From: a virus | Lineage: Duplodnaviria; Heunggongvirae; Uroviricota; Caudoviricetes | IMG/VR virus record: IMGVR_UViG_2671180676_000008 | Length of the DNA stretch: 49,350 nt | Strand: one strand, 5' to 3' | Part shown: one piece after another, positions 213 through 47,819 of the stretch | Layout of the letters: each line of letters starts with the position of its first letter | Position numbering within the stretch: the stretch's first letter is position 1 | The notes under the pieces: generated by a model | The model's database searches: none | The model's input: only the letters and a program-made list of their open reading frames with translations | What the model was told of the DNA's origin: nothing | Translations under genes and position numbers: made by a program

Positions 213-797
213 TTACTCCCTGACAGGGTTCGTAGGCCACTCAATATCAGGTGCAGTTGATGTATCAACACGGTTCAGCAACACCCGATACTTTTTCCAG
301 GCTTCCAGCAATGAGGTTTCTTCCTCCGTTGCGATTTCCAGATCTACAGCATCCTGAAGTGGCGCAATATGCTCACTGGCTACCTGCATCAGGCTGTTTT
401 TTGTTTCTTCCGCCTCTCGGATCCGGAACAGTTTTTCTGCTTCTGCATCTTTCACCCAGGCTGTGCCGTTCCACTTCTGAAACTCCCCTTCCGGCGATAA
501 CCAGGTAACATTTTCCGGTAACGGACCGAGTTCAGAAATAAATAACGCGTCGCCGGAAGCCACGTCATAGACGGTTTTTCCCCGATGATCTTCAACGAGA
601 TGCCACGATGCCTCATCACTGTTGAAAACAGCCACGAAGCCTGCCGGAATATCTGGCGGTGCAATATCGGTACTGTTTGCTGGCAGACCTGTATGAGGCG
701 GAATATATGCGTCACCTTCACCAATAAATTCATTAGTTCCGGCCAGCAGATTATAAATTTTTATGGTCCGTGGTTGTTCACTCATTCTGAATGCCAT
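213..797 (-). CDS. tfa: Tail fiber assembly protein (lambda Tfa-like)
   Basis: 194-aa ORF, same length and context as lambda Tfa, directly downstream of stf; recognised from the translation. Confidence 0.85.
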
Positions 798-3700
798 TAT
801 GCAAGCCTCACAATATAGTTAAATGCGATGTTTTTGACGGTGTTTTCCGCGTTACCCGCAGCGTTAACGGTGATGGTATGTCCATGTGAGCCAATCGCAA
901 CGGAGTGCGTATGAGCACCAATACCGACAGTATGTGCATGTGCGCCTGCGCTTGCAGCAGTGCCGGACAGCGAGTGGGTATGAGCACCATCTGATGATGT
1001 CTTCCCTGCATTACGAGTCTGGCCACTACCGCTTGTTGTGCTCATAATCCCCGCGCTTGGATTTGAAATCGCGGTATAACCATTAGGGAAAATGCTCGTG
1101 TTCGTGCCACCAAATGCACCGGAACTCTTGTGTTGGTGCGCACCGGCACTATTTGCAGTCCCGCTAATACTATGGGTATGCGCCCCGGTGTTATTCGTGG
1201 ATTTGGTTCCGTAATCAAACGACGATGTGTTTTTCGTCCCCAAATCCGTACTGGATGCGCTGGCGCTGTGGGTGTGCGATTTAATGCCGTCCTGTTCCTG
1301 AGACAATACGGCACGACCACTGGCGGGCTTGCCCTTAATCGTCCAGCCACGCATATCAGGAATAACGCCTGACGGATAAGCCACTGCAAGTTTCGGGTAT
1401 GCAGATTTGTCAAAAGTCTGCCCCTGCATCAGGGCATAACCAGACGGAACGGTATCTGATGGCCACGGGATTGGTGCGCCGACTGGGTAGCTTTCTGGTG
1501 GAAGATTTTTCGAGGTATAAACTTCTGCCCAGTCTTCCTCAAAACCATAGCCATCTCTTGAGGAACGGTAGAACAGACCTCCATTTCTGTAATGTGCCTT
1601 CATCTGCAAGGTCCGGCAACTTCCGACTCCGGTATAGAAGTTAACCAGAATATAGCTGTCGCCAGAGCGGGTGACATTGTAAGCGCCTGATTCGGCATTC
1701 CATGGAACGCCCCCATCCGCATCGGCATACGTATCCGTTGCCCTTCTGGCAAAAGCAGCCACATGCGCGGCGGTTAAAGTAATATCTTTGGAACCATCAA
1801 ACTCAACACCAGAAACCAGTCTTGGCGTTTGCAGCTTTGTTGCTGTTAATGCATTACCGTTCAGACTTGCGGACAGTTTGGTTCCAATAGCCAGTTCGCC
1901 GGTTGCGTTATCAATAGCAAACGGTCTTAATGTATTCCAGCCACCATAAACATCACCTTGATTGGTAAGCAGCAGGTAAGTTTTAGCGCCATCATTACGC
2001 CATAATGCACCATACTCCCCACCTATCATTCGAATCTGATTACCACCACGCGCTACAATTTCGTCTGTGGCAAAAAGTTTTTTGCACGACAAGTTATCGT
2101 TAACGATTAACGAATGAGACTCATAAAAACCACGCCCACTCTTAAAATCAAGGATAACGTCCGCCGCGATACATTCAGTCGCTGGATTTGTTGCCCCAAA
2201 CTTATAGGTCGTATCATTAACAACGAGATCAGCACCAGGTGCGGATATTGACAGGCCATCTTCGATAAACGCAAAAACAGGGAAAGCAGCGCCATCAACA
2301 TAGAACACAGAGCGCAAATCATCGCCCTTATTACTCATCATTATTGAGTGGATGGCTCGTTCATTGTTTTGATATTGCCAGAACATTCCATAAGCATAAC
2401 GCCCCCTGTCACTCCAGCCAGCAGGCATAACAAATCCGTTAAACTCGCAGTTATTCATCGGATCGCCTGCGCTTCGCGTTGCCGTGGTGATAATGACCCT
2501 TGATGCCAGTTCGCTTACTGAGCCAGCAGAACGCATAACAACAACAGGGTAATATTTTCCAGATGTTGCACCTGCAGGAGCGTTAACCCGCACATAACGC
2601 ATACCACGCTTATCAGCAAAGTCTGTTTTACTGACCGCGTTAATGTTGTTCAGGAAGCGTCCCTTATCGGGTATATCAGCGCCGTTCTGGTCTTTCTGCA
2701 GACGTTTCTCTGCATTGTCATAGGCTGATTTTACTGCCTTTGGCGTTGCCGCCAGCGTTTCAGACGTACTGTTGGTCGCACTGCTGAGCTGTACTATCCC
2801 CTTTTTCGTCGTACTTGCATCCTCAAGCGCCACGGCGGATGCAATATCCTCTGCCCGTTTAGCTGCTGTCTCGGCGCGCGTTGCCGCGGATTCCGCCGTA
2901 CTTTTGCTCTGAGCTGCCGCCGTCGCACTGCCAGCTGCCTCTGTCGCCTTCGTGGATGCCGTCGTGGCGCTGCTCTTCGCTGCTGACGCTTGTCTGGTCG
3001 CCTCATCTTTTGAAGCAGACGCCGATGATGCCGATGACGCCGCCGAACTGGCGGACGATGCGGCAGCCGTTTTTGAGGATTCTGCGCTGGTTTCCGACGC
3101 TTTCGCGTTCGTTTCGGATGTCTTCGCTGCGGAAGCAGACCTCGCTGCTGCGCTGGCCTGTTCAGTGGCTTCGCCAGCCTTCGTTGTGGCTGTTGAAGCA
3201 GACGATGCAGCACTTTCTGCCGACTTTCCGGCAGCGGTGGCACTGGCTGAGGCCTGCCCGGCACTTGTTGACGCGGCGCTGGCAGATGAGGCAGCCGCTG
3301 TTTTTGAGTCTGCTGCTGCGGAGGCACTCTGTGCTGCTGCCGTCTCAGAAGACCTGGCGTTCGTCTCGGACGTTTTTGCCGCCTTCGCGGAAGTTCCTGC
3401 CGCTGTTGCCGAGGAGGCTGCACTACTGGCGCTCGAGGCTGCGCTCGTTTCTGATGATTTTGCCGCCTCTTTTGAAGCCGACGCATCCCTGGCTGAGGTG
3501 GCAGCTTCTGACGCTTTCGTGGTCGCGGTGGATGCAGAAGTGGCTGCTGATTGTTGTGACGCTGCCGCATTCGTTTCTGACGTTTTCGCCGCACCGGCAC
3601 TGGTAGCCGCCGCGCTTTTTGAGGACTCTGCAGCGGCAGCACTTTTTGAGGCTTCAGTGGCCTTTGTTGATGCCGTTCCTGCGCTGGAAGACGCTGACTG

Positions 3701-4204
3701 AGCCGACGACGCGGCCTGTCCGGCTGACGTGCTGGCTGCACGTGCTGAATCTGCAGCATCAGTCGCATGGGTTGCCGCCTCACGGGCTGATGTGCCGGCA
3801 TCGCTGGCTGACTTCTTCGCGGCTGCCGTGTTCTGTGCCACCGCGGACGCGTTACGCGCCACCTCTTCCACCATCAGTTCAAAACGGCGCAGTGCCTCCG
3901 GACGGGCATCATCCTCCGTCATGGCACCGAGAAAATCATTCAGCGTACCGGGGCGGGAATCTTCATACACGGTGATGGTCCCGGCATGTGACGGCGGGAA
4001 TCCTTCCACCAACAGAATAACGCTGTACTGACCGTACTCAACGTCCATACTGTAACGCCCGGCTTCATCCGGATTTTCTGAGGCCAGCGTGTTCACCACC
4101 ACCGTGGTGCTGTTACGTTTTGCTTTCAGCTGGATTGTGCAGTTCTGTACCGGTTTTCCTGTGCCGTCTTTCAGTACACCTGAAATCTTTACTGCCATAT
4201 TCAC
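797..4204 (-). CDS. stf: Side tail fiber protein (StfR-like)
   Basis: 1135-aa ORF between lom and tfa; long Ala/Ser/Thr-rich central repeats and His-rich C-terminal GAHTHS/GAHAH motifs typical of lambdoid side tail fibers. Confidence 0.85.
2840..3870. repeat. Low-complexity Ala/Ser/Thr-rich coding repeats inside stf
   Basis: Recurrent AAKTSETNA-like units; all frames on both strands are open here (overlapping ORFs 2794..3801, 2881..3606, 2952..3701), as expected for GC-rich repeats. Confidence 0.6.
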
Positions 4205-22317: not shown

Positions 22318-23628
22318 TTAAATCCGAAGTGATGTGACTCTTCCGGTCGGTTTGACAATAGGGAATTGCTTAACGATGAAATAACCTCCGGCATCATTCG
22401 GGTGATCATTGCCAGATTTTTTATCAGGCTCCCCCTTCTCATCCCAGACCTGTTGCTCCAGAGATTCGGCATATAACGGGCAACGCTTCACATTAACTTT
22501 ATAGCGACGCTCACCATTGGCATTGCAGAACATTGCATTCATTGAGTTAACGCGATCTTTTACTGGCGGGTTCGAGCTGTTCACCACAACGTTAAAACCA
22601 GCCTGCTTAAGCTGGGCTATATCCGTCGTACTTGCGTTACTTGATTTTCTGGAATCCCCGGAAGCATCTGGATAAATATAAATTTCCCTCACTTTCCGGT
22701 AATCATTCCCATCATACAGCCAGAAGCGTTCTTTAATGATGCGGATCATATCCGGCGTATCGTAGGCATTGATGATTTCAGTTACCGCACATGGAAGCCC
22801 CAAACGCAGCACATGGACGATTCCCGCCATCTTTCCAACGTTAAAATCCATCCCAATATAAATCGGCTCCCCTGGCTGCTCCACTTCTTCGCAATTATTC
22901 AGTTTCCGGTCAAACTGATGGTAAACAGTACCACTTGTCAGGTTAGTAAACTGTCCTCGAAGATAGGCTTTAATCAGCTCTGGAGGGTATGATTCAAGAA
23001 GCGAAGGAATGTAATCTGCTGGCAGGTTCTTTTCATTATCGAAAGTAGATGCCTGCACCAGACCATACAGTGAGGCCAGCTCTGTTTTTTCACGCACGGC
23101 TTTAACAAACTGCTCGTAGACAAATTTGAATCCTTCCGGCGTGGTTGTAACGTCAATACCGTTGCGAAGTCCATCAATCTTATAACGCATACGTGCAATT
23201 ATCTTGCGCCACGCCGTTCTGGCTTTTTCCTTCGGCAAAATGTCCAGTTCATCCACCAACGCATTACCAATTTTGAAACCGACGATCGTTTGTGGCTTCT
23301 CCATCGATCTGCAGATAGTGGTTCCCCGATACTGGCGTCCGTAATAAAAGTGAACCTCTTTATTTCCCTCATTAATTTTTACGTTCAATCCCCAGTCAGC
23401 AGCAACTTCTTCCACTGTAGGGTAAAAAATATCGCGAATTTGGGGATACGTTGGCGCAAAATATCCCTGATTTATACCTGGATGCTCCCAAATCCCCTTG
23501 CATATGCCGCCACACCCAACCCATGTTTTGCCCGAGCCAAAACCAGCAATATAGGCTTTAAATTTATGGGGCATTGAAAGAAATCGCGCCTGAGGCACAT
23601 TAAGCGTCGGAGAGATCATCTTCATCAC
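22318..23628 (-). CDS. terL: Terminase large subunit
   Basis: Walker A GFGSGKT near the N-terminus and a nuclease-type C-terminal domain; 436 aa. Confidence 0.85.
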   Translation of the reverse strand: MMKMISPTLNVPQARFLSMPHKFKAYIAGFGSGKTWVGCGGICKGIWEHPGINQGYFAPTYPQIRDIFYPTVEEVAADWGLNVKINEGNKEVHFYYGRQYRGTTICRSMEKPQTIVGFKIGNALVDELDILPKEKARTAWRKIIARMRYKIDGLRNGIDVTTTPEGFKFVYEQFVKAVREKTELASLYGLVQASTFDNEKNLPADYIPSLLESYPPELIKAYLRGQFTNLTSGTVYHQFDRKLNNCEEVEQPGEPIYIGMDFNVGKMAGIVHVLRLGLPCAVTEIINAYDTPDMIRIIKERFWLYDGNDYRKVREIYIYPDASGDSRKSSNASTTDIAQLKQAGFNVVVNSSNPPVKDRVNSMNAMFCNANGERRYKVNVKRCPLYAESLEQQVWDEKGEPDKKSGNDHPNDAGGYFIVKQFPIVKPTGRVTSLRI

Positions 23629-24694
23629 TCCTTACTCTGGCATCAACCACATTAATATTGATCGCCACAGGCTGGGGATGTTCATTATCTTCCACCGTTT
23701 CGATCTCTTTGCGCAGCTTCTGGTTTTCCATTCTGCGCCGTTCAATTTCCAGTTCCTGTAGCCGTTTATCTGCACATAAAGCCCCGCCAGCAGAAAACAA
23801 ACGCAACAATTCACGCCGGGCGGCAGCCTTATCCTCCAGCAGGATCTCAACGCCGAATTTTCCGAATTTTGCCCCTGCATATAATTGCCGCGCATCCCCA
23901 TCAAGCAGAGTGGTATCAGCCATATAAAGCTGTCCCGTTCCCTCACCGCAGCACTTCGGGCAGTCCGGATTGGGTATGGCGTTATCAACAAAGCCGAGGC
24001 CTCCATATTCCGGTTCGGGTTTGCCATCTCTGGAAGCCTGCGCCGCTGCCTTGTCGAATTCTGCTATATCGCGCCACTGGTAGAGATGATTCTCGCCCCA
24101 GCAATAACGGCAGTTAACACGGCGAAATTGTGCAAGCTGATTGGGGTCGGCCAGGACAATAGCCATCAACTGACTCACTAGTAAATCCAGGTCTGCGGTA
24201 TAGCGTTTCTGGTACTGATTGCGGAAGTAGCTGATAGCGCGAAAAACCCTGGCATTTCTAAGCATACGACTGGCGTTGCTGTTAGCTGTCGCACCTTGCC
24301 CCTCATAACCGGCTAGTCGGTACGCCTCTGTCGGCTTTTTACCCTGAGCAACAAGCATCGCAAACTTAGCCTGCTGGTCAGAAATGCCGAATTCATCGGG
24401 ACAGAACGAAAATTCCTCCGCGTCGCCCTCATTCAGGCCCGCATCGAATACTGGCTTTTTTTCCTGAGATTTTTCGTTCCGCTTTTGTGCAGTCTGCGCA
24501 GATTTTTTCTGCGCACTTTTTTGCGCAGTTTTGCACATTTCTGTCTGCGCATTTTTCGGAGTTTTTTTGATGTAACGACGGGCTGTTGCGTAATTCAGTC
24601 CCCTTGCTTCACACCATGCCACCGGAGATATACCGGAGCGGGTGTATTCAGCAATATACTCCTGCTGCAACGCCCCCCAGTCCGGTCTGCTCAT
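23600..24694 (-). CDS. terS: Terminase small subunit
   Basis: N-terminal HTH, charged linker, conserved PTEAYRLAGY-type terS motif; immediately upstream of terL. Confidence 0.7.
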   Translation of the reverse strand: MSRPDWGALQQEYIAEYTRSGISPVAWCEARGLNYATARRYIKKTPKNAQTEMCKTAQKSAQKKSAQTAQKRNEKSQEKKPVFDAGLNEGDAEEFSFCPDEFGISDQQAKFAMLVAQGKKPTEAYRLAGYEGQGATANSNASRMLRNARVFRAISYFRNQYQKRYTADLDLLVSQLMAIVLADPNQLAQFRRVNCRYCWGENHLYQWRDIAEFDKAAAQASRDGKPEPEYGGLGFVDNAIPNPDCPKCCGEGTGQLYMADTTLLDGDARQLYAGAKFGKFGVEILLEDKAAARRELLRLFSAGGALCADKRLQELEIERRRMENQKLRKEIETVEDNEHPQPVAININVVDARVRSDEDDLSDA

Positions 24695-24697
24695 CAG

Positions 24698-24949
24698 TTA
24701 GTCCTGATTTTTATCCACCCTGAGTAGTTCGCGCAGAGCAAAGGCATCCCCTTTTCTGGCAAGCTTAAACAATGCCGCTCGTAACTCGGCTTCACCTTTC
24801 GCTCTGCCCTTACGGATGGCCGCATAAAAATCTGTCATTGCTTCCCGATTTTCTTTCAGTCGGTTCAGATCAACATCCAGAACGTCAGCGATTTGTTGTG
24901 CAGTCATCCGGCACGCTGCCAGAGACTCGACTTTCGAATACGGAATCAT
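24698..24949 (-). CDS. Hypothetical protein (83 aa)
   Basis: ORF between the GT-A-like gene and terS; start uncertain because of overlap. Confidence 0.4.
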   Translation of the reverse strand: MIPYSKVESLAACRMTAQQIADVLDVDLNRLKENREAMTDFYAAIRKGRAKGEAELRAALFKLARKGDAFALRELLRVDKNQD

Positions 24950-25817
24950 TTGTCACCCCCATTGATATGCAGGGTGTCTTCTTCCTGTATTTTTCGTGAA
25001 GGATTTTTACTGCAGCGTTGTTCCAGGTGACCTGATGGTGAATGCGTTTATGGCTGGCACCCATCAGTGAGATTTTTACGCACGACGGCGCATACATGAC
25101 GGAGTAAAAACTTTTAACGTAGGTTCCGGAATCCAGATACAGCTCGGTCATTCCGCCGCTGTTTTTCTGCGTCTGTTTCTGCCCTAACTGGACAGCACCG
25201 ATCGTCATAAACAATTCACCACAGCGACCGAGATTCGTGTACGTATTCACATCCTCGTTAATGCGCCCCATGAATGAGAACGGTCGATCAACCGAACAGA
25301 TAAAGCTGTTCATTGCCTTGCGTTTCACCCACGAAGCATGGCCGCCATTGTCACCAAGAAAATCCCCGCCCTGCGACATAGCGATGGAAAGAGCAGGTAT
25401 TGATTCGTAGTACGCCAGCATTTCAGAAAGGATCGCATCCAGTTTCCTTATCGGAAAATAGGCCTGGTCATAGTTGCGATCCACCCGAAACTGGAACTCG
25501 TGATAATCATCATCGAGCTGAATGAAGTATTTACACCCGACCAGTTTTGCCAGGTCGAAACAGGCATTACGGGCGTAAAAAATTGAGCGGCGGTCACAGA
25601 AATTATCGGCTTCGTCAAAACGACTGGCGATATCGGCTTTGGAAAACACCAGCACCTGTTCACCAAATTCAGCCATGTACTGATGCCGTGTCTTATCTTC
25701 ATCATCAACAACGATAAAAATTTTCCCGGTATAGCCAGCACGACGCAACGTCCGGTAAGTCAGAACTTTGTCCGGTCGCCCGTGAGTCAGAATAAAGGCG
25801 CAAAAATCATCACGCAT
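24885..25817 (-). CDS. GT-A-fold glycosyltransferase-like protein
   Basis: ILTHGRP...IVVDDEDK and a DxD-type QLDDDY motif resemble GT-A nucleotide-sugar transferases; start taken at the internal Met to avoid overlap with the upstream gene. Confidence 0.45.
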   Translation of the reverse strand: MRDDFCAFILTHGRPDKVLTYRTLRRAGYTGKIFIVVDDEDKTRHQYMAEFGEQVLVFSKADIASRFDEADNFCDRRSIFYARNACFDLAKLVGCKYFIQLDDDYHEFQFRVDRNYDQAYFPIRKLDAILSEMLAYYESIPALSIAMSQGGDFLGDNGGHASWVKRKAMNSFICSVDRPFSFMGRINEDVNTYTNLGRCGELFMTIGAVQLGQKQTQKNSGGMTELYLDSGTYVKSFYSVMYAPSCVKISLMGASHKRIHHQVTWNNAAVKILHEKYRKKTPCISMGVTNDSVFESRVSGSVPDDCTTNR

Positions 25818-26601
25818 ATTCCTCCTCCTCACCACCATGCATGATCTCCACCATGCGCTGCGTCATCCGGACAAATCCATTTTCAATAGCCTGCTGATAA
25901 TCAATGATCACCAGCGCCGACTCCTCGAAAAAACACTGAATTTCAGAGGGGGCGTGAGCGTAATAGTCCGCAATTCTGCTGAAATTAAACACCGTGTGAC
26001 GTTCTGCCGCACACAGGAGGAATTTCTCAATATCAGGCTCAAGGGACGCCGAACGTATCCGGCTGATCAGCTCCTGAGTTTTCGTATCGTCGTACAGTTC
26101 ACTGATATCCGGTTTACCGCCCGACGGCTCATAAACAGGCGTATCAATTTTCGTCGTATACGGCTCCTCCTCATTTCCTGTACCGGGCAAAACATCCGTC
26201 AACAGTTCATCAATTTCTGTCGGGATGAAGCCTGTCAGGGAGACATCAAAATCAGCATTGATTAGGTCCGACAGCTCCATCCGCAACAGATCTTCATCCC
26301 AGCCAGCATTCATCGGCAGGCGATTATCTGCCAGGCGGTACGCCTTTTTCTGCTCATCCGTCAGGCCAGACAGAACAATGACCGGAACAGAATCCATTTT
26401 GAGCATTTCAGCCGCCATAACACGACCGTGACCCGCAATAATTTCGCCCTTTTCGTCAATCAGCACCGGATTAGTCCAGCCGAATTGCTTAATACTTTCT
26501 ACCAGTTGTGCCACCTGCTCAGTACTGTGCGTCCTGGCGTTGTGCGCATACGGTGACAATTCTTGTAATGGGCGATAGACTATCTTTAATTTCTCGCTCA
26601 T
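25810..26601 (-). CDS. ParB-like nuclease domain protein
   Basis: N-terminal ParB/Srx-type motifs (PYAHNARTHS, GHGR); the short K-12 Rac ynaK looks like a remnant of this gene. Confidence 0.75.
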   Translation of the reverse strand: MSEKLKIVYRPLQELSPYAHNARTHSTEQVAQLVESIKQFGWTNPVLIDEKGEIIAGHGRVMAAEMLKMDSVPVIVLSGLTDEQKKAYRLADNRLPMNAGWDEDLLRMELSDLINADFDVSLTGFIPTEIDELLTDVLPGTGNEEEPYTTKIDTPVYEPSGGKPDISELYDDTKTQELISRIRSASLEPDIEKFLLCAAERHTVFNFSRIADYYAHAPSEIQCFFEESALVIIDYQQAIENGFVRMTQRMVEIMHGGEEEEYA

Positions 26602-26618
26602 ACAGCCTTGCTTTATGA

Positions 26619-26652
26619 ATAAAACGCACCCCAGCAGCCAGTGCTACTGGGG
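26619..26652 (-). terminator. Rho-independent terminator downstream of trkG
   Basis: Stem ccccag/ctgggg (26629..26652) followed on the - strand by GTTTTATT. Confidence 0.45.
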
Positions 26653-26738
26653 ACGGAGGTGTTGCTGGTAAAGTTAGGTATTGGATCAATGAGTGAGTCA
26701 ACATAATATTAAACTCACAATTATAAATCAGCCATATA

Positions 26739-28196
26739 TTAGGAGCGCCAAAAAAAACCTGAAAACAATATAATAACAGGATAAATTTCAAGGCGACCAA
26801 GAATCATAGCTATGCACATTAAGCATTTTGCAATGTCATTAAGTACTCCGAATGACGATGCAGTAGCCCCAAAACCTAATCCCATATTATTAATACATGC
26901 AGCCACTGTTGCAAATGATGTAAGAAAATCATATCCCATACCATTTAACACCAGTATAAAAAACACCGTGAAGAGAGTATAAAGAAAAAAGAAACTCCAT
27001 ACAGACCTCATTACACGATCTGTAACTATCTTCCCTCCTACATTTACACTCAACAACGCTCTGGGATGAGAAAGCTGATTTATCTCGTGTTTGCTTTGTT
27101 TGAAAAGTATAAGAAATCGAAGTGACTTAATTCCACCACAAGTTGAACCTATACATCCCCCAAAGAAACTTGACAACAGCAAAAACACTATCGTGTGCGT
27201 GGGCCAACTTGCATAATCCTGCGTAGCTAAACCATTATCAGTGAGCATGGAGCTGGCAAGAAAAAACGAATGAATAAAACTTCCATGCAAGTCATACATA
27301 CCTATATGCCAGACCTGGAAAGAGGTAACAATGATCACCCCTAAGGCTATTAACAGAAAGAAACGAAGTTCAATATCTCTGATTAAAGGTTTTATCGTTT
27401 TCCTGCTAATAACAATATACCAAAGAGTGAAGTTGAAAGCCGATAGCAGGGAAAAAGAACCAGCCACCAGCTCAACCAAATAGTTATTAAAATATCCGAT
27501 ACTCTCGCTATGAGTTGAGAAACCACCAAGCGAAACTGTGGAAATCCCGTGACAAATAGCATCAAACAAAGGCATTCCTGCAAGTCTATAACAGACAATA
27601 CAAGCAATACCTAATAAAGAATAAGTTATCCACAGTGTCCGTGACGTATCGGCCAGGCGGGGAGTGAGTTTGTCATCCTTAAATGGCCCCGGCATTTCTG
27701 ACTGATAAAGCTTTGCACCACCAATACCCAATAATGGCAATACAGCAACCGCCAGAACAATAACTCCTAAACCACCTATAAAATTTAACTGTGACCGATA
27801 GTACAAATATGCCCGAGGTAATGAACTAACATCATCAATTACAGTTGCTCCTGTTGTTGTTATTCCAGAAACCCCTTCAAACAGAGCATCAATGAACGTT
27901 AAATTAAGTTCTGAGTCAATCCATAAAGGGAATGCACTAATAACAGAAAACAAAATCCAAAACATTACAATTATAATAAACCCATCACGGGTACGTAATT
28001 GAATGCCAGATTTCTTAGTTGTATACCACGCTCCGCCACCAATGCAAAAAAATATAACGAAAGTTATAAAGAAAACAAACAGGCTTTTTTCTTTATAAAA
28101 CAATGCTACAACCATTGGTGGCAACATTGAAAGACTATAGAGCCAAACCAGGAACCCACACATATGAGTAACAACTCTTACATGAGATGTATTCAT
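26739..28196 (-). CDS. trkG: Trk-system potassium uptake protein TrkG
   Basis: Polytopic membrane protein with repeated GxGG selectivity-filter-like segments, recognised as the Rac trkG product; AT-rich gene; start taken at MNTSHV. Confidence 0.9.
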   Translation of the reverse strand: MNTSHVRVVTHMCGFLVWLYSLSMLPPMVVALFYKEKSLFVFFITFVIFFCIGGGAWYTTKKSGIQLRTRDGFIIIVMFWILFSVISAFPLWIDSELNLTFIDALFEGVSGITTTGATVIDDVSSLPRAYLYYRSQLNFIGGLGVIVLAVAVLPLLGIGGAKLYQSEMPGPFKDDKLTPRLADTSRTLWITYSLLGIACIVCYRLAGMPLFDAICHGISTVSLGGFSTHSESIGYFNNYLVELVAGSFSLLSAFNFTLWYIVISRKTIKPLIRDIELRFFLLIALGVIIVTSFQVWHIGMYDLHGSFIHSFFLASSMLTDNGLATQDYASWPTHTIVFLLLSSFFGGCIGSTCGGIKSLRFLILFKQSKHEINQLSHPRALLSVNVGGKIVTDRVMRSVWSFFFLYTLFTVFFILVLNGMGYDFLTSFATVAACINNMGLGFGATASSFGVLNDIAKCLMCIAMILGRLEIYPVIILFSGFFWRS

Positions 28197-28333
28197 ATCT
28201 AAATATTCTTTCAATTATAACCACCTTGCTGCAATATTATGATTATACTGTATAAAATTTAACTCCTCTTAGATCTTACTTCACTGTTCCTTATGAAACA
28301 ATCATCAAAATGAATCATATTGTAGTTAAGATT

Positions 28334-28798
28334 TTACTTTAAACACTGCTCGGTTATGTATTGCTGAGCACCTTCAAGTTGGGCCTGCATCATTACCAGT
28401 CGTTCCCGGAGGGTGAAATAATCCCGTTCAGCGGTGTCTGCCAGTCGGGGGGAGGCTGCATTATCCACGCCGGAGGCGGTGGTGGCTTCACGCACTGACT
28501 GACAGACTGCTTTGATGTGCAACCGACGACGACCAGCGGCAACATCATCACGCAGAGCATCATTTTCAGCTTTCGCATCAGCTAACTCCTTCGTGTATTT
28601 TGCATCGAGCGCAGCAACATCACGCTGACGCATCTGCATCTCAGTAATTGCCGCGTTCGCCAGCTTCAGTTCTCTGGCATTTTTGTCGCGCTGTTCTTTG
28701 TAGGCGATGGCGTTATCACGGTAATGATTAACACCCCATGACAGGCAGACGACGATGCAGATAACCAGAGCGGAGATAATCGCGGTTACTCTGCTCAT
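28334..28798 (-). CDS. Rz: Spanin inner-membrane subunit Rz
   Basis: 154-aa ORF recognised as lambda Rz-like from the translation. Confidence 0.9.
28393..28578 (-). CDS. Rz1: Spanin outer-membrane lipoprotein Rz1 (embedded in Rz, +1 frame)
   Basis: 61-aa ORF with lipobox LVVVGC and a proline-rich tract, fully nested in Rz. Confidence 0.85.
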
Positions 28799-29271
28799 AC
28801 CTCAATCTCTCTGACCGTTCCGCCAGCTTCTTTGAATTTTGCAATCAGACTGTCAGCCTTATGCTCGAACTGACCATAACCAGCGCCCGGCAGTGAAGCC
28901 CATATATTGCTGCAACGGTCGATAGCCTGACGGATATCACCGCGATCAATCATCGGCAAAGCGCCACGCTCTTTAATCTGCTGCAGCGCTACAGCATCCT
29001 GACTTTCTGGAGAAAAATCTTTCAGGCCAAGTTGCTTGCGGTAGGCATCCCACCAGCGTGAAAGAAGCTGGTAACGTCCAGCGGCTGTTGATTTGAGTTT
29101 CGGATTTAGCGTGACAAGTTTGCGGGGGTGATCGGAGTAATCAGTGAACAGTTCGCCACCGACAATAACATCATAACCGTGATTTCTGGTTTTCTGCCGT
29201 CCGTTATCTGTTCCTTCTGACCATGCCACCATATCAAGGAAAGCTTTACGCTGGGAATTAAGTGTCTGCAT
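28795..29271 (-). CDS. R: Endolysin (lambda R-type lytic transglycosylase)
   Basis: 158-aa ORF recognised as lambda R-like over its full length. Confidence 0.95.
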
Positions 29272-29274
29272 TAA

Positions 29275-29616
29275 TTACTCCTTATGGGCACCGAACTTGT
29301 TACCGATGACCCTCATTGCCGCACCACGAATAGCATCAACACCAATCAGCCCCACCCCACCACCAATGGCAACAGAAAGTGATTTAGGCCATCCGACATA
29401 CTCAAGCGCGGATGCAAAGGTCAGCGTCAGAGCACCACAAAGCAGAATCTCAAGCGTTTTTCGTTTCCAGCCGCCGCCACCGCCAAAATAGGCAATGCGC
29501 AAACCAGCCATAATAATTGACATAACCACTGCACCCAGCGGCGTATCTCCACGCCACCAACTTTGTAAGAGTTCCAGTAAGTCAGGCCAGGAATGAGGGG
29601 CATTGTGCATTTTCAT
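29275..29616 (-). CDS. Holin with dual-start Met-Lys-Met motif
   Basis: Three predicted TM segments and a charged C-terminus; strong GGAGGTGA SD before the MKM start; directly upstream of R. The ORF track starts at GTG 29625. Confidence 0.7.
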   Translation of the reverse strand: MKMHNAPHSWPDLLELLQSWWRGDTPLGAVVMSIIMAGLRIAYFGGGGGWKRKTLEILLCGALTLTFASALEYVGWPKSLSVAIGGGVGLIGVDAIRGAAMRVIGNKFGAHKE

Positions 29617-29962
29617 AAGCCTCACCTCCGAGAGTTCGGATGGTGCTAAGTGTAAGATTCAGGCTCTCAGGCTTGCTAACAAGAAGTCGAGGATGTTTCC
29701 GGAGCCTAACAACGAAAAAGCCCCGGGACATGCCGGGGTCAGATGGAGTGCCAGATTAAGCTTCTGGCGGTATATACTCGTGTTTGATATCGTTAAATCG
29801 CCAAAAGTAACAATTCAAACAAAGAGGATTTTTATGTCTGAAAAAACAAGCCACAAGATGAAAATAAACCTCAGCAACCCGTGGCACCAAAACCAACTCC
29901 AACACAAAGTACTACAGACTTTGCTACACGTCGTGTTTTTGTTGGAGATTCTGCCGACTCAG

Positions 29963-30532
29963 TCATTGAACATATAAAAAAACAGCCGAGATAAACATCG
30001 CCGCTACCGGAGCAAGGATGGTATACATCCTTGCTTTATCGAGACTCGTGCGGATTTTCTCATTTTCCAACAGTAACTCTCTTGCTGTATCACTCAAGTC
30101 AACAAGGCGATACCTTCGTATAAGCGGCAATAACTTATCAGGTCCTAAATATCCTGCATCAGCGAATATTTTAAAGCTCGAGGGCTCCATATCCTTATAT
30201 TTTTCATGATATAGATGATCAGGAGGGGCATTGATCAGGCCCCTAACCTTCACAGATAAACCAGTACATACCAAGTAAATGGCGCACCATGTCCATAGTA
30301 ATGTAAATGTGGTAATTCCGGCGGTGAGAAAATCGAAATTAGTTTTCTGTGTCAGCAATAAAAAAGATGAACCAATTCCAACAATCTGAATGTTCAGAAG
30401 TTTGTATCCATTCTCAACATTGGTTTTGTTAGAAAGATGAATCTCTCGTATCGTCTCTTCCCCTTGTTTTTCAAGATAATCGACGAGCTCATCATCTACT
30501 CCTAAAAAATAATCTTTAGGTAGTTCTCTCAT
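29963..30532 (-). CDS. Hypothetical membrane protein (Q-S moron)
   Basis: 189-aa AT-rich ORF with about three hydrophobic segments, between the post-Q terminator and the holin. Confidence 0.55.
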   Translation of the reverse strand: MRELPKDYFLGVDDELVDYLEKQGEETIREIHLSNKTNVENGYKLLNIQIVGIGSSFLLLTQKTNFDFLTAGITTFTLLWTWCAIYLVCTGLSVKVRGLINAPPDHLYHEKYKDMEPSSFKIFADAGYLGPDKLLPLIRRYRLVDLSDTARELLLENEKIRTSLDKARMYTILAPVAAMFISAVFLYVQ

Positions 30533-30753: not shown

Positions 30754-31296
30754 TCAAGCTATTTTTTGAGCAAATGATTCTCGCATGGGAATATATAGGG
30801 CATACTCAGCAACAGCCAACCAATTAGCAATTCGCTTTTCGCATGTGCTAAAACACCACTCAGGATGTGCATCATTTAGCAATTCAGCCATTTTGCGCTT
30901 AGTCATCCCCCGTCCTTCATACCGTTGCCGGAGGACACTAATCAATCCAGGATGCTCTGCCAGCACCTCACTTATGACTCTATCAATACATAACGCCTCT
31001 GCATCAGTACAATGCGCCAGCCAGGTCTTTTGCTTGCCATTGATCATCTCTCGCAAAAACGCTTCCAGCTCAGGTTTCTCTATTCCCGCTTTTTTCATCC
31101 TGCGCAGGGCTTCATTGACGGCTGTTTTCGTCAATTTTTTGGATGCCAGCAACTGGTTAAACATATTTCCCGTCTTACCGCCGCCAATATACGACCAGCG
31201 CCCCCACATGCGCAGTTTTCCCTGAATCCAGACACTTTCCAGCGTGGTGAGACGAAGGTGTTCCCCGCTTTTGCCTGTATTTGTTGGGTAAATCAT
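30754..31296 (-). CDS. Late antiterminator Q (phage 21/82 QuuD-like family)
   Basis: LRMWGRW segment resembles QuuD-type Q proteins; immediately upstream of the lysis genes; start taken at MIYPTN to avoid overlap. Confidence 0.6.
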   Translation of the reverse strand: MIYPTNTGKSGEHLRLTTLESVWIQGKLRMWGRWSYIGGGKTGNMFNQLLASKKLTKTAVNEALRRMKKAGIEKPELEAFLREMINGKQKTWLAHCTDAEALCIDRVISEVLAEHPGLISVLRQRYEGRGMTKRKMAELLNDAHPEWCFSTCEKRIANWLAVAEYALYIPMRESFAQKIA

Positions 31297-31583
31297 AAAT
31301 AACCTTCCTTTCTCCAGATTTCTTGTGTGCGAAAAACACCTTCTGCATGCATCAGGCGTAATTCTTCTTTGGTGTAATCGCTGGTTTTTACCCGCCCGTC
31401 GATTAAATCGTGGCATGAGCTACAGGCAATCGCTGCCTGCATATCGTGTGGTTTTGTCGCTGTTCCGCACGTCCCCGCCAGCCTGTAATGCGCCAGCACA
31501 GAGGTTTCGGGATTGTGATTGCAGTAGCCAGGGATTCTGATCTGGCACATCTGGCCTTTAGCCGCTTTACGTAAATTCACCAT
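31293..31583 (-). CDS. YbcO-like Cys/His-rich nin-region protein
   Basis: 96-aa ORF with a C..C..H..C..C..H pattern, just upstream of Q. Confidence 0.5.
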   Translation of the reverse strand: MVNLRKAAKGQMCQIRIPGYCNHNPETSVLAHYRLAGTCGTATKPHDMQAAIACSSCHDLIDGRVKTSDYTKEELRLMHAEGVFRTQEIWRKEGYL

Positions 31584-32182
31584 TACGCAAACTCCAGTAG
31601 TTGTGCGGCCACATTTTCAACTTCCTCCTGAGAGGAGAATTTACGGAACAGAATCCAGTTCCACAGCACATTCAGAACAGATTTATAAACCTGCTGAAAC
31701 TCGGTTTCGTCCATATTCGCAAACGCGATGGATTTCGCCCTGCGCCCACGGCTACCGTCCGGATAAATATGCTCGGTGTAAAATCCGGCCTGAATGGTTA
31801 CCCACTCGCGGAAAGCCTCAAACGACTTTAGCAATGCCGTATCCCGAGTTCTGCGTGTCGCAACTGTATTTAGATATTGCTCTGCGGCATCACTCAGGGC
31901 TGGTGTGTGTTCCCGACCAACTGATTCGCACAAGTAATCCACGAAACCAGACAGCAGTTCTCGTTCGCGAGGTGTGATCGCCCCACCGACCGGAGTCCAG
32001 TAATCGAATCCCAGTTGCAGGAGTTTGAAAAAACGCTTGTGGAATGCGTAGTTACGCACACGCTTAAAGTCTGCGTGTATCCACTCACCTATTTTGATTT
32101 GATGCAGAAAATCGCAACTCTCCGGCGTCGCCGGGAGAAGTAAACCAGAAGAGGTTTGTTTGACCAGTTGTATATGCGCCAT
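31583..32182 (-). CDS. Conserved lambdoid nin-region protein, function unknown
   Basis: 199-aa ORF tightly packed upstream of the YbcO-like gene. Confidence 0.5.
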   Translation of the reverse strand: MAHIQLVKQTSSGLLLPATPESCDFLHQIKIGEWIHADFKRVRNYAFHKRFFKLLQLGFDYWTPVGGAITPRERELLSGFVDYLCESVGREHTPALSDAAEQYLNTVATRRTRDTALLKSFEAFREWVTIQAGFYTEHIYPDGSRGRRAKSIAFANMDETEFQQVYKSVLNVLWNWILFRKFSSQEEVENVAAQLLEFA

Positions 32183-32462
32183 TTCTCAATCTCTCGATGG
32201 CGCAGCGCAGCAGATGCCAGTTGTTCAGGCTGACGAATAAAGTATAAATAAACTGGCTATGGTGTAAAGCCCCACATAGCATGAACAAACACTACATATC
32301 AAATAGCTGGTACAAGGATAGAAATACGACATTTATTATTAAAAACGATTAGATAAATTACATTTTAATGTTATGCAAAAGTTCTTTTTTATCATAACAT
32401 TTCAATAAAAGCATTACAGATGCAATCATCCCGTCATCATCAATTATTTAAGGTGGTTAAAC

Positions 32463-32549
32463 ATGGAAAATAACAAGTTCGCACATCTCGCTCCTTTTTT
32501 ATCCGTAATCCTTTTCGCTTGTTGTTTTATATGGGCATTATTTTTATAA
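32463..32549 (+). CDS. Candidate small hydrophobic peptide (28 aa)
   Basis: ATG preceded by AAGGTGG at good spacing; translation MENNKFAHLAPFLSVILFACCFIWALFL; in an AT-rich spacer. Not in the ORF track. Confidence 0.3.
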   Translation: MENNKFAHLAPFLSVILFACCFIWALFL

Positions 32550-32940
32550 AGTAGCCACATGATAAGTTGCTGGAATCATATTTCCCACTCAAGTCATTAA
32601 CATTTGATAAGATATATCTAAAAGGACACCTTTACATTATTTATGTGTATATAATTTATTTATATACACAGTAAAGGTATCCTGGGAAAATATTTATCGT
32701 TAAAAAATACATCATAAATAATTAAGCTGAAATTTCAGAACACAACTAATACACACAATAAGGTTCAGTAACAATAATCTATGTGGACTACATCGAGATT
32801 TTTTGATTAAACTTTAATAACTTATTCCTAACACACAGAATGCATAAACTAAAAGTAAAACAAATAGTTATACGAAAAACAACCATATTTATTATATCTT
32901 CTCCTCTAATCAACATATCAATTATGTGTTTCATAACAGC

Positions 32941-32988
32941 TTGACATAACCCTCAAAAACACGCATTTATAATACATGTTTTTGAGGG
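32941..32988 (+). promoter_or_regulatory. Promoter-like elements with a 12-bp perfect inverted repeat upstream of the yeaR-like gene
   Basis: TTGACA (32941..32946) and TATAAT (32968..32973), 21 bp apart; inverted repeat ccctcaaaaaca/tgtttttgaggg (32951..32988) encloses a GCATTTATAATACATG core and overlaps the SD. Confidence 0.4.
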
Positions 32989-32995
32989 GGTGGTT

Positions 32996-33334
32996 ATGAC
33001 ACACAAGAGAATTCCTAAAGATTGGGTAATCAAACGCTCAACTCCGTTCTTCACAAAAGAGAACGTACCTTCAGCGTTATTAACACATCATAATACAGCA
33101 GCAGGTGTTTTTGGGCAGTTGTGCGTAATGGAAGGCACTGTAACATATTATGGTTTTACTGATGAGAATGCTACTGAACCGGAGATAAAAGTAGTCATTA
33201 ATGCTGGCGCTTTTGCAACAAGCCCACCACAATACTGGCACCGTGTTGAACTAAGCGATGATGCTCAGTTTAATATTAACTTTTGGGTCGCTCCAGACTT
33301 CTCGGGCGAAAAAGTCTATAGCACCAAAAAATAG
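32996..33334 (+). CDS. YeaR-like DUF1971 family protein
   Basis: RSTPFF..K...GV.G.L.VMEG.V.YYGF.DE...EP...I.AG.FA..PP.YWH..E...D..FNI.FWVAP pattern matches E. coli YeaR as I recall it. Confidence 0.65.
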   Translation: MTHKRIPKDWVIKRSTPFFTKENVPSALLTHHNTAAGVFGQLCVMEGTVTYYGFTDENATEPEIKVVINAGAFATSPPQYWHRVELSDDAQFNINFWVAPDFSGEKVYSTKK

Positions 33335-33363
33335 ATGATCATATTAAAAATGCTTTAACAGTC

Positions 33364-33400
33364 AGACCCGGCAGGGCTATCCCCGACGGGTCTCATTTTT
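33364..33400 (+). terminator. Putative terminator downstream of the yeaR-like gene
   Basis: Stem agacccg/cgggtct with a long loop, followed by CATTTTT. Confidence 0.35.
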
Positions 33401-34096
33401 GTAAATATATTGGTTCTACATTGACAGGAGACTTCAACCATAAGAAGTAATCTGAATACTTGAGCAATAAATTTACTTAAGATTAATGAGCGCACCTTGC
33501 CGGACAAAGATAAACCAAGGTAACACCTTTTTTCTAGCCAGTATGTAATCAATCAGAAAGCCGCTCCATAAGAACAACAGCAAGACAATAAATTGCCATT
33601 ACAGCCGCAATAGCCAGCGCACATTTGAGAACCAGCACGACAACCCCCTGTATTAGACGCACACCAGTCCTGATAAATATGAGGCTGTCTCGTCAGTGAT
33701 TCAATACAACTATTGGGTATAGTTTCTGTGATTTTATTCTGTAGAAATGGAACACAACAACCAGTCACCACCAGCACTTCTTTAAATACGCCAAGTCCGA
33801 CGCAAGCTAACCTTCTAGTCCGCTTTGAGCGAAAAGCGGACAGGAACATTCTGGTTAATAGATATCAATGCTAACAAAAAAGCTCCCGATGGAGATTTTG
33901 AAACCGCTTCCACATAATGAAATAAAAGGATTTATTTCTGGTCATGCCCACACATTGACCACGTCGAAGTAAGTAGCTCCGCTTCGCGGAGTTACTTAAG
34001 ATAATTTCTATGTAGTTCCATGCTATGATTTAATTTTCAAGTTACAAAATCTAAATCTACAAATGTCCATTTGGGTGTAAAATTACACAATCCTAT

Positions 34097-36422
<2,326 letters not shown>

Positions 36423-36540
36423 TTTAATTACCTTATATATCCAAACTCTTAATTTTCTCTTTTTTACCATAGGATTAATCCAAAATAAAGACCTTGTTGA
36501 CTAAACCCTCATGTACAAAATGCACACTTACTCAAAAGGA

Positions 36541-36566
36541 TCTGGAGGCAATCTCGACCTCCATGA
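36541..36566. promoter_or_regulatory. Imperfect palindrome between the TetR-like gene and the deaminase operon (candidate operator)
   Basis: atctggaggcaatctcgacctccatgat contains the inverted repeat tggagg / cctcca. Confidence 0.3.
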
Positions 36567-36723
36567 TTTAGTTCCTAGGGATAAGCAGAAATCTAGCACT
36601 GGATTAAAATTTAAAAATAATAATCAATAGGTTATAATGGTTTTTATTCGCATCCATGGGATCTGCTGCTGCCCGCATGATGTTGGATGCGACGGCGCTG
36701 GCACGACCTCACCCGGTGAAACG

Positions 36724-37170
36724 ATGAAACGCGAAAGGGTTGTTCTTCGGGAAGGTGCAGTTGGACTTTCAATCGATGACGTTGCAAAAGAGGCTGGCGT
36801 CAGTAAGGCAACGGTAATGTACGATCATAAGTCAAAGCAAGATTTGCTCAGCGATCTCATCAGTCGCCTTATGCCAGTAGAGGAGGAACGTGTTCAGCAA
36901 GCGATAGCGGAAAGTAATAATACCCCACATCCCGCACTCTATGGGCGAATTATTTCAGCCAGTAATGCTCTCAGTCATACTGAGAGAGCAGTAGTGCTGG
37001 CGGTCAGCGAATCGTTAACTAACGATACGAATATCAGGGACACCATGCGTTCCTGCACAAACAAAGATTTGGATGAGATAAAAAGAGGACCAAAACCAGA
37101 CGTTGCCGTCCTGGTATATTTGGCGTTATCTGGTATCTACTGCCAAGAATTTTTTGATTTTTACAAATGA
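36724..37170 (+). CDS. TetR-family-like transcriptional regulator (short)
   Basis: LSIDDVAKEAGVSKATVMYDHKSKQDLL resembles a TetR N-terminal HTH; divergent from the operon; alternative start at 36637. Confidence 0.55.
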   Translation: MKRERVVLREGAVGLSIDDVAKEAGVSKATVMYDHKSKQDLLSDLISRLMPVEEERVQQAIAESNNTPHPALYGRIISASNALSHTERAVVLAVSESLTNDTNIRDTMRSCTNKDLDEIKRGPKPDVAVLVYLALSGIYCQEFFDFYK

Positions 37171-47422: not shown

Positions 47423-47617
47423 ATGAGATATGACAATGTTAAACCATGTCCATTTTGTGGTTGTCCATCAGTAACGGTGAAAGCCATTTCAGGATATTAC
47501 CGAGCGAAGTGTAACGGATGCGAATCCCGAACCGGTTATGGTGGAAGTGAAAAAGAAGCACTCGAAAGATGGAATAAACGAACCGCTGGAAATAATAATG
47601 GAGGTGTTCATGTATAA
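47423..47617 (+). CDS. ralR: Restriction alleviation protein Lar/RalR
   Basis: MRYDNVKPCPFCGCPS...CNGCESRTG zinc-ribbon-like small protein, recognised as RalR-like. Confidence 0.8.
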   Translation: MRYDNVKPCPFCGCPSVTVKAISGYYRAKCNGCESRTGYGGSEKEALERWNKRTAGNNNGGVHV

Positions 47618-47819
47618 AATTACCGCCACTATTGAAAAGGAAGGTGGCACTCCTACTAACTGGACAAGATATTCAAAATCTAAACTAACGAAATCAGAAT
47701 GCGAAAAAATGCTCTCAGGTAAAAAAGAAGCAGGCGTTTCCAGAGAGCAGAAAGTAAAACTGATAAATTTTAATTGCGAGAAACTTCAGTCCTCGAGAAT
47801 TGCATTGTATTCAAATTAA
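47610..47819 (+). CDS. ydaC: Small protein YdaC
   Basis: Start at MYKITATIEK preceded by GGAGG; sits between ralR and xis. Confidence 0.7.
   Translation: MYKITATIEKEGGTPTNWTRYSKSKLTKSECEKMLSGKKEAGVSREQKVKLINFNCEKLQSSRIALYSN

Follow-up and report, generated by a model that had tools for sequence, protein, structure and literature searches.

What is a gene for a potassium transporter doing between the lysis cassette and the packaging genes of a prophage, and does it serve the lysogen or the phage? The window analyzed here is the whole stretch of 49,350 nucleotides, and all positions refer to it. We conclude that the feature is, with high probability, the trkG moron of a full-length E. coli Rac prophage, a foreign insert of about 1.7 kb placed between the lysis cassette and the ynaK-TAGT-terminase block. 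The term moron is used here as by Juhala/Hendrix 2000, for an extra transcription unit of a prophage. The trkG of Rac, a phage-borne gene of low G+C content that has a host function and is silenced by H-NS, has served since 1991 as a standard example of its kind.

The occurrence of trkG in Rac, its promoter, and its transport properties are already known and published. The present analysis makes a modest addition, in that trkG is seen within an intact late operon and the unit is delimited to the nucleotide. Further modest additions are a terminator that appears to be chimeric, a history that fits a single capture with near-invariance across E. coli, and an annotated start that is probably six codons short. 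A literature search on trkG as a moron returned nothing relevant.

The Rac prophage and its late operon

The segment 26500..28450 matches E. coli strains with full-length Rac at 100% identity and the Rac prophage of K-12 MG1655 at 99.9%. In the full-length-Rac strains and in K-12, the genes of this segment are annotated as lysis protein/rzoR, trkG, and ynaK. The annotated Rac of strain BR1220 likewise matches the trkG region at 100% identity, and the ORFs across the whole stretch are co-linear with the BR1220 annotation. Membership in Rac was judged by a co-linear, near-identical set of genes (intR-xisR-recET-racC-kilR-sieB-racR-ydaSTUV ... Rz-trkG-ynaK), and this set was found in the window. 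Because 26500..28450 is near-identical to annotated Rac, the whole stretch is identified by sequence as the full-length, intact Rac prophage of E. coli, and the feature as its trkG. Rac is a lambdoid prophage that is integrated next to ttcA. Two RNAs that are expected features of Rac were recovered with Rfam, namely the IS009 sRNA (256-454, minus strand, 229 bits) and RalA, the antitoxin sRNA of the RalR toxin (47616-47794, minus strand, 225 bits). The Rfam search of the trkG region found no RNA family.

The late operon around trkG is intact and is read from the minus strand. It begins with a Q-like antiterminator (30754..31416; DUF1133/Phage_antitermQ), which is followed in the gene order by an AT-rich ORF of 189 codons (29963..30532), a lambda-family holin (29275..29625), and a GH24 endolysin (28795..29271). 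The last gene of the lysis cassette is the Rz i-spanin (28334..28798; Pfam Phage_lysis, 5.6e-53), within which the Rz1 o-spanin is embedded (28393..28578). The trkG gene follows in the same orientation directly downstream of Rz/Rz1, at 26739..28196 when read from the annotated ATG or 26739..28214 when read from an upstream TTG, and the distance from the Rz stop (28334) to the trkG start is accordingly 137 or 119 nt. Next come full-length ynaK (25810..26601), which encodes a ParB_N protein by its Pfam match and is named after its RefSeq relatives, the gene for a TET-associated glycosyltransferase (TAGT, 24885..25838; PF20691, 3.8e-35), an ORF of 83 codons, the small terminase gene terS (23600..24694), and then terL with the head and tail genes. 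The order Rz-trkG-ynaK is found in approximately 1,540 of 5,426 complete E. coli genomes, where trkG itself is present in 1,541 (about 28%).

The YnaK protein encoded here is 263 amino acids long, and its N-terminus, in addition to the ParB_N domain, matches a PADLOC model for type II methyltransferases; K-12 retains just an 89-aa stub of ynaK. The ynaK gene overlaps the TAGT gene just upstream of the small terminase (24885-26601), and the two may constitute a DNA-modification or packaging-associated pair.

Other cargo was noted elsewhere in the prophage. A low-GC island at 32000-36800 (down to 26% G+C), situated between the replication and Q-side genes, is absent from the K-12 Rac. It contains three co-directional genes on the minus strand (35442-36470, 34891-35445, and 34097-34891) and, alongside them, a divergent TetR regulator (36637-37170, plus strand). 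The island encodes an adenosine-deaminase-like protein (PADLOC CARF_ADA-domain match, 3e-36), a non-canonical purine NTP pyrophosphatase by annotation in a RefSeq relative, and a SIR2 protein with a ThsA-like match (9e-32), and it looks like anti-phage defence cargo of unusual composition. A candidate second moron lies between Q and the holin at 29721-30532 (minus strand). It consists of the 189-codon ORF (39% G+C), which has no match in Pfam or PADLOC, and a strong terminator-like hairpin, CCCCGGCATGTCCCGGGG followed by CTTTTTCGTT, at 29738..29721. The slot between Q and the holin is the one in which Stx phages carry stx.

Composition, boundaries, and origin of the trkG unit

The trkG gene is compositionally foreign relative to the flanking phage genes. 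Its G+C content is 0.380 overall and 0.321 at third codon positions (GC3). The corresponding values for GC/GC3 are 0.52/0.52 for Rz, 0.49/0.45 for the endolysin, and 0.51/0.47 for the holin on one side, and 0.50/0.55 for ynaK, 0.48/0.55 for TAGT, and 0.51/0.51 for terS on the other. The spacer upstream of trkG contains 25.5% G+C. Along the sequence, the G+C content falls sharply at the Rz stop (28333) and is back to normal at approximately 26690. Against all 47 other ORFs of the window, the z-score of trkG is only -1.7, because the prophage holds several other AT-rich islands. The trkG gene differs in the same way from its chromosomal counterpart trkH (38% versus 53% G+C; PMC9898762). The base composition asserted for the gene in a first-pass annotation of this DNA is thus upheld (0.38/0.32 against 0.48-0.52/0.45-0.55 for the neighbours).

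On the upstream side, the Rz protein shares 93% identity with lambda Rz as far as its C-terminus. At the DNA level, the Rz stop codon marks the end of the homology to lambda; beyond it, the lambda genome has bor, on the opposite strand. The placement of trkG after Rz, in the slot that lambda uses for bor, was therefore correctly read at first pass.

On the downstream side, the trkG stop codon is followed by a 3′ untranslated stretch (26653..26738, minus strand), which is AT-rich to about 26690 and of normal G+C below, and then by a stem-loop that resembles an intrinsic terminator (26629..26652, minus strand). The hairpin and T-rich tract that had been noted after the gene are present. The stem has 10 pairs, 7 of which are G-C, with a loop of 4 nt; the sequence is CCCCAGTAGC-ACTG-GCTGCTGGGG at 26652..26629, followed by TGCGTTTTATT. 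RNA folding lengthens the stem to 12 pairs with GUUUUAUU directly after it, and 6 of the 8 bases after the stem are U. The T-run TTTTATT and the ribosome-binding region of ynaK (26602..26624, minus strand) are shared backbone, and the start codon of ynaK lies 27 nt downstream of the hairpin/T-run.

The two parts of this element have different distributions. A 76-nt stretch containing the stem (26625..26700) occurs in 1,518 of the 5,426 genomes, with one copy in each, which is close to the number with trkG. The exact stem was found in 195 IMG/VR loci that were fetched, and trkG is directly upstream in all 195. Four viral loci had seemed to carry the stem without trkG; in these, trkG is actually frameshifted or mis-assembled. 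In a local alignment with two loci without trkG (L057 and L070), identity of 93-97.5% starts at 26624, the first T of the T-run, and these trkG-less relatives have a hairpin of other sequence before the same T-run. A MAFFT alignment had suggested that the whole hairpin is a backbone element. This was ruled out by the local alignment, the distribution of the 76-nt stretch, and the viral loci; only the T-run is shared. Since the stem occurs only with trkG and the T-run is common to relatives without it, these comparisons identify the terminator-like element as a chimera between a trkG-linked stem and a backbone U-tract. The first-pass description of the terminator as the gene's own consequently holds for the stem and fails for the U-tract, which belongs to the ynaK side.

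The hairpin is predicted to stop trkG transcripts of the lysogen before they reach ynaK and the packaging genes. It is unlikely, on our estimate, that the hairpin and T-run are instead a recombination-junction scar or a regulator of ynaK translation, with trkG transcripts continuing into ynaK and the packaging genes. The homology break with the trkG-less relatives does fall exactly between the stem and the T-run, the short T-run (GUUUUAUU) can also take part in a weak alternative hairpin, and the start codon of ynaK is close by. The fold z-scores of the hairpin are modest (-2.5 and -1.3), and although no other terminator-like site in 25500..30000 is as strong, the scan overall was barely above chance, with 7 sites found and 4.8 ± 1.9 expected from shuffled sequence. 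Against this reading stand the length (10-12 bp) and G+C-richness of the stem, the U residues that follow it, and the hairpins of the trkG-less relatives. The occurrence of different hairpins before the same T-run suggests that a terminator has been selected for at this boundary between modules. We thus prefer to regard the element as a probable terminator of trkG.

From the Rz stop codon and the junction between stem and U-tract, the trkG unit is delimited by sequence comparison to 26625..28333 (minus strand), or about 1.7 kb. The segment proposed at first pass, 26619..28333, matches these limits almost exactly. The insert would then consist of an AT-rich spacer with promoter and ribosome-binding site, trkG, and a hairpin that uses the backbone T-run as its U-tract.

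Among 80 IMG/VR loci that encode YnaK, 76 have the order Rz-trkG-ynaK-TAGT-terS. In the other four, ynaK-TAGT-terS stands behind a cassette with an M15 endolysin and there is no trkG; this arrangement was also found in 26 complete E. coli genomes, that of strain W among them. One further locus (L106) had been considered as a case of trkG joined to another downstream module. Here ynaK-TAGT was lost secondarily except for the first 10 nt of ynaK, and the locus is uninformative. When a synthetic Rz/ynaK junction was compared with the 5,426 E. coli genomes as an empty site, no place covering at least 80% of the query was found. As no exact empty site was found, the inference of insertion draws on a different comparator for each flank. 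On the flanks of the trkG unit, a search for direct or inverted repeats and for remnants of IS elements gave just short chance matches.

In a set of 58 distinct Rac-like sequences, nucleotide diversity (π) does not exceed 0.01 between approximately 28440 and 26640, whereas the 5′ two-thirds of Rz is mosaic in the same set, with π of 0.05-0.08. This near-zero diversity of trkG against the mosaic 5′ part of Rz, together with the missing empty site, fits a single recent capture of the unit, which would then have spread with or between Rac-like phages.

The source of the captured gene would have been AT-rich. No direct donor was found, the closest homologue outside Rac being merely 79% identical. 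The non-Rac relatives of TrkG are 61-79% identical and include proteins of E. fergusonii (79%), Citrobacter (77%), Pectobacterium (75%), Enterobacter (70%), and Serratia (66%). They are scattered accessory genes of other Enterobacterales with 42-57% G+C, located at different non-prophage loci, some of which are clearly variable islands. As judged from this scattering, the TrkG clade is a patchy accessory paralogue. The homologue in Serratia marcescens (L091/L092, 6001-7461) is situated in a mobile island with a primase/D5-type replication protein, transposase fragments, and a very large helicase-like protein, and the Citrobacter gene adjoins dynamin-like GTPases and an RHS toxin; the clade thus seems to travel in different kinds of islands. 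One of the trkG-less loci (L057) carries an ORF pair upstream of its lysis cassette (2878-4096), and in our own reading of the translations, these look like the A and B subunits of a pertussis-like/ArtAB-type ADP-ribosylating toxin, which would be a further cargo in a Rac-related phage.

Expression and function of trkG

The AT-rich spacer (28197..28333, minus strand) appears to contain the trkG promoter region and the ribosome-binding site. Two candidate -10 elements at 28247..28242 and 28219..28214 (minus strand) are perfect TATAAT hexamers, and all candidate trkG promoters have poor -35 elements. Use of the -10 at 28247..28242 would yield a short leader containing the Shine-Dalgarno sequence AAGGTGG (28228..28222, minus strand), which lies 6 nt before the TTG at 28214.

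Published work supports a promoter at this location. Genomic SELEX with the RpoD holoenzyme gave a peak at trkG in Rac, among the few constitutive promoters inside the K-12 prophages, and the authors concluded that trkG was inserted along with its promoter (PMC5811629). A fusion of the trkG promoter to lux was active (PMC9898762). The published lux primers map to positions 28707 and 28197 of the window, and the active promoter fragment is therefore 28707..28197. Deletion of hns, or of hns and stpA, raises the level of trkG mRNA, and the wild-type level is still similar to that of trkH (PMC9898762). The K-12 Rac is without Q, pR', and the holin and endolysin genes; since Q and pR' are missing, trkG expression there is independent of Q. 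In the lysogen, as shown in K-12, trkG is transcribed from its own promoter by the host sigma-70 RNA polymerase without phage Q, and it is partly silenced by H-NS and StpA because the DNA is AT-rich.

The start codon bears on the same region. From the annotated ATG at 28196 the protein has 485 amino acids, and from the TTG at 28214 it has 491. No Shine-Dalgarno sequence precedes the ATG. The TTG and its Shine-Dalgarno sequence are conserved in the homologues from E. fergusonii, Citrobacter, and Pectobacterium, in which the position of the ATG is occupied by ATG, CTG, and ATT, respectively; the E. fergusonii homologue also has a -10-like gAGTATAAT upstream. Many TrkG homologues are 491 aa long and begin MK.../MQ..., and a trkG CDS of 1,476 nt is already annotated in a GenBank record of a phage. 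The true start of trkG is thus probably the TTG at 28214, and the RefSeq start would be six codons too short. This assignment is probable and not certain, because the distant homologues from Serratia and Buttiauxella begin near the position of the ATG.

The encoded protein is identical to K-12 TrkG at 485 of 485 residues and is also 100% identical to cluster P0001. Residues 40-483 of 485 match the Pfam family TrkH (PF02386) with 484 bits (E = 5e-145), where the curated cut-off is 27 bits, and residues 7-485 match the solved TrkH structures 3PJZ and 4J9U (E = 1.2e-120). The full-length Pfam match and the identity with K-12 TrkG bear out the original naming of the gene. By these matches, the product is assigned to the TrkH/TrkG cation transporter family (Trk/Ktr/HKT superfamily) as the membrane subunit of the Trk K+ uptake system. 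TrkG sits in the inner membrane and borrows the TrkA gating ring of the host.

For K-12 TrkG, uptake of K+ has been demonstrated experimentally and depends on Na+; the protein also lets Na+ through, it can replace TrkH, and both use TrkA (PMC9898762). TrkG would thereby add to the lysogen a second, Na+-dependent route of K+ uptake that is able to substitute for TrkH. A single trkG mutant has little growth phenotype (PMC9898762). The published data make a benefit to the host plausible, though a modest one. Of the first-pass proposal of host-benefit cargo, the K+ uptake is established for the K-12 protein, and the benefit itself would be modest.

The terminator scan found no terminator-like site between Rz and trkG, and late transcription is thus expected to pass through trkG; during lytic growth, Q-modified polymerase from pR' would read through trkG and the hairpin. 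The insulation of the gene that had been proposed at first pass consequently applies to the 3′ side, where the hairpin is located, and not to the 5′ side. There is a slight chance that trkG is, in addition to its role in the lysogen, a true late gene of the phage that is read from pR', with a flux of K+/Na+ that aids the timing of lysis, macromolecular synthesis during the burst, or superinfection exclusion. If so, the near-invariant retention of trkG in about 28% of E. coli genomes would be explained.

A stronger version of this proposal, which we consider very unlikely, is that trkG mainly serves the phage as a late gene co-transcribed from pR', where it would sustain the K+ content or membrane energisation until the holin is triggered, with any benefit to the lysogen being secondary. 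It would account for the co-directionality of trkG with the late operon, for the lack of a terminator after Rz, and for the retention of the gene at near-zero diversity both in those genomes and in records of induced or packaged Rac-like phages. However, expression of trkG is similar to that of trkH in the K-12 Rac, from which Q, pR', holin, and endolysin are gone, the gene has its own RpoD promoter (PMC5811629), and related phages that share the packaging module lack trkG.

It is scarcely credible that trkG is a passenger, silenced and decaying, that currently serves neither host nor phage. Although the gene is AT-rich, bound by H-NS, and partly repressed, and the single mutant is nearly without growth phenotype (PMC9898762), its reading frame is uninterrupted, with 99-100% conservation in nearly all of the approximately 1,540 genomes and 76 viral loci, and the gene is transcribed at a trkH-like level and complements the loss of TrkH (PMC9898762). 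The reading of trkG as a moron expressed in the lysogen is thus retained.

Comparison with known systems

A positional counterpart of trkG is bor of phage lambda, which is expressed in lysogens. Like trkG, bor occupies the slot right after Rz/Rz1, and both are cargo genes expressed from the prophage. However, bor is on the strand opposite to the late operon, whereas trkG is co-directional with the late genes. The products are unrelated in sequence, bor encoding a small lipoprotein of the outer membrane and trkG a subunit of a cation transporter of the 12-TM class.

In function, a counterpart is the chromosomal TrkH of E. coli and Vibrio (3PJZ and 4J9U), which belongs to the same Pfam family over its full length and uses the same TrkA partner (PMC9898762). 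The identity between the two proteins is about 41% (measured with Salmonella TrkH), and the genes differ in G+C content (53% for TrkH and 38% for TrkG). Unlike TrkH, TrkG is Na+-dependent in its uptake of K+, permeable to Na+, and regulated by H-NS. The TrkG-clade paralogues of other Enterobacterales are members of the same subfamily, with the TTG and Shine-Dalgarno sequence conserved and with TATAAT upstream in E. fergusonii. None of these is located in the late region of a prophage, in contrast to the trkG of Rac.

Earlier work on the trkG of the cryptic K-12 Rac prophage was reportedly carried out by Schlosser et al. in 1991 and 1995 (cited in PMC9898762). The protein described more recently from K-12 Rac (Tanudjaja et al. 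2022, PMC9898762) is the same as the one encoded here (485/485). At the DNA level the two agree to 99.9%, a figure that includes the spacer before the gene and the hairpin after it, and the neighbouring genes are the same. In K-12, however, Rac has suffered deletions on both sides of trkG, whereas the prophage examined here is full length, with complete Rz and ynaK genes, and the setting of trkG within the late operon is visible.
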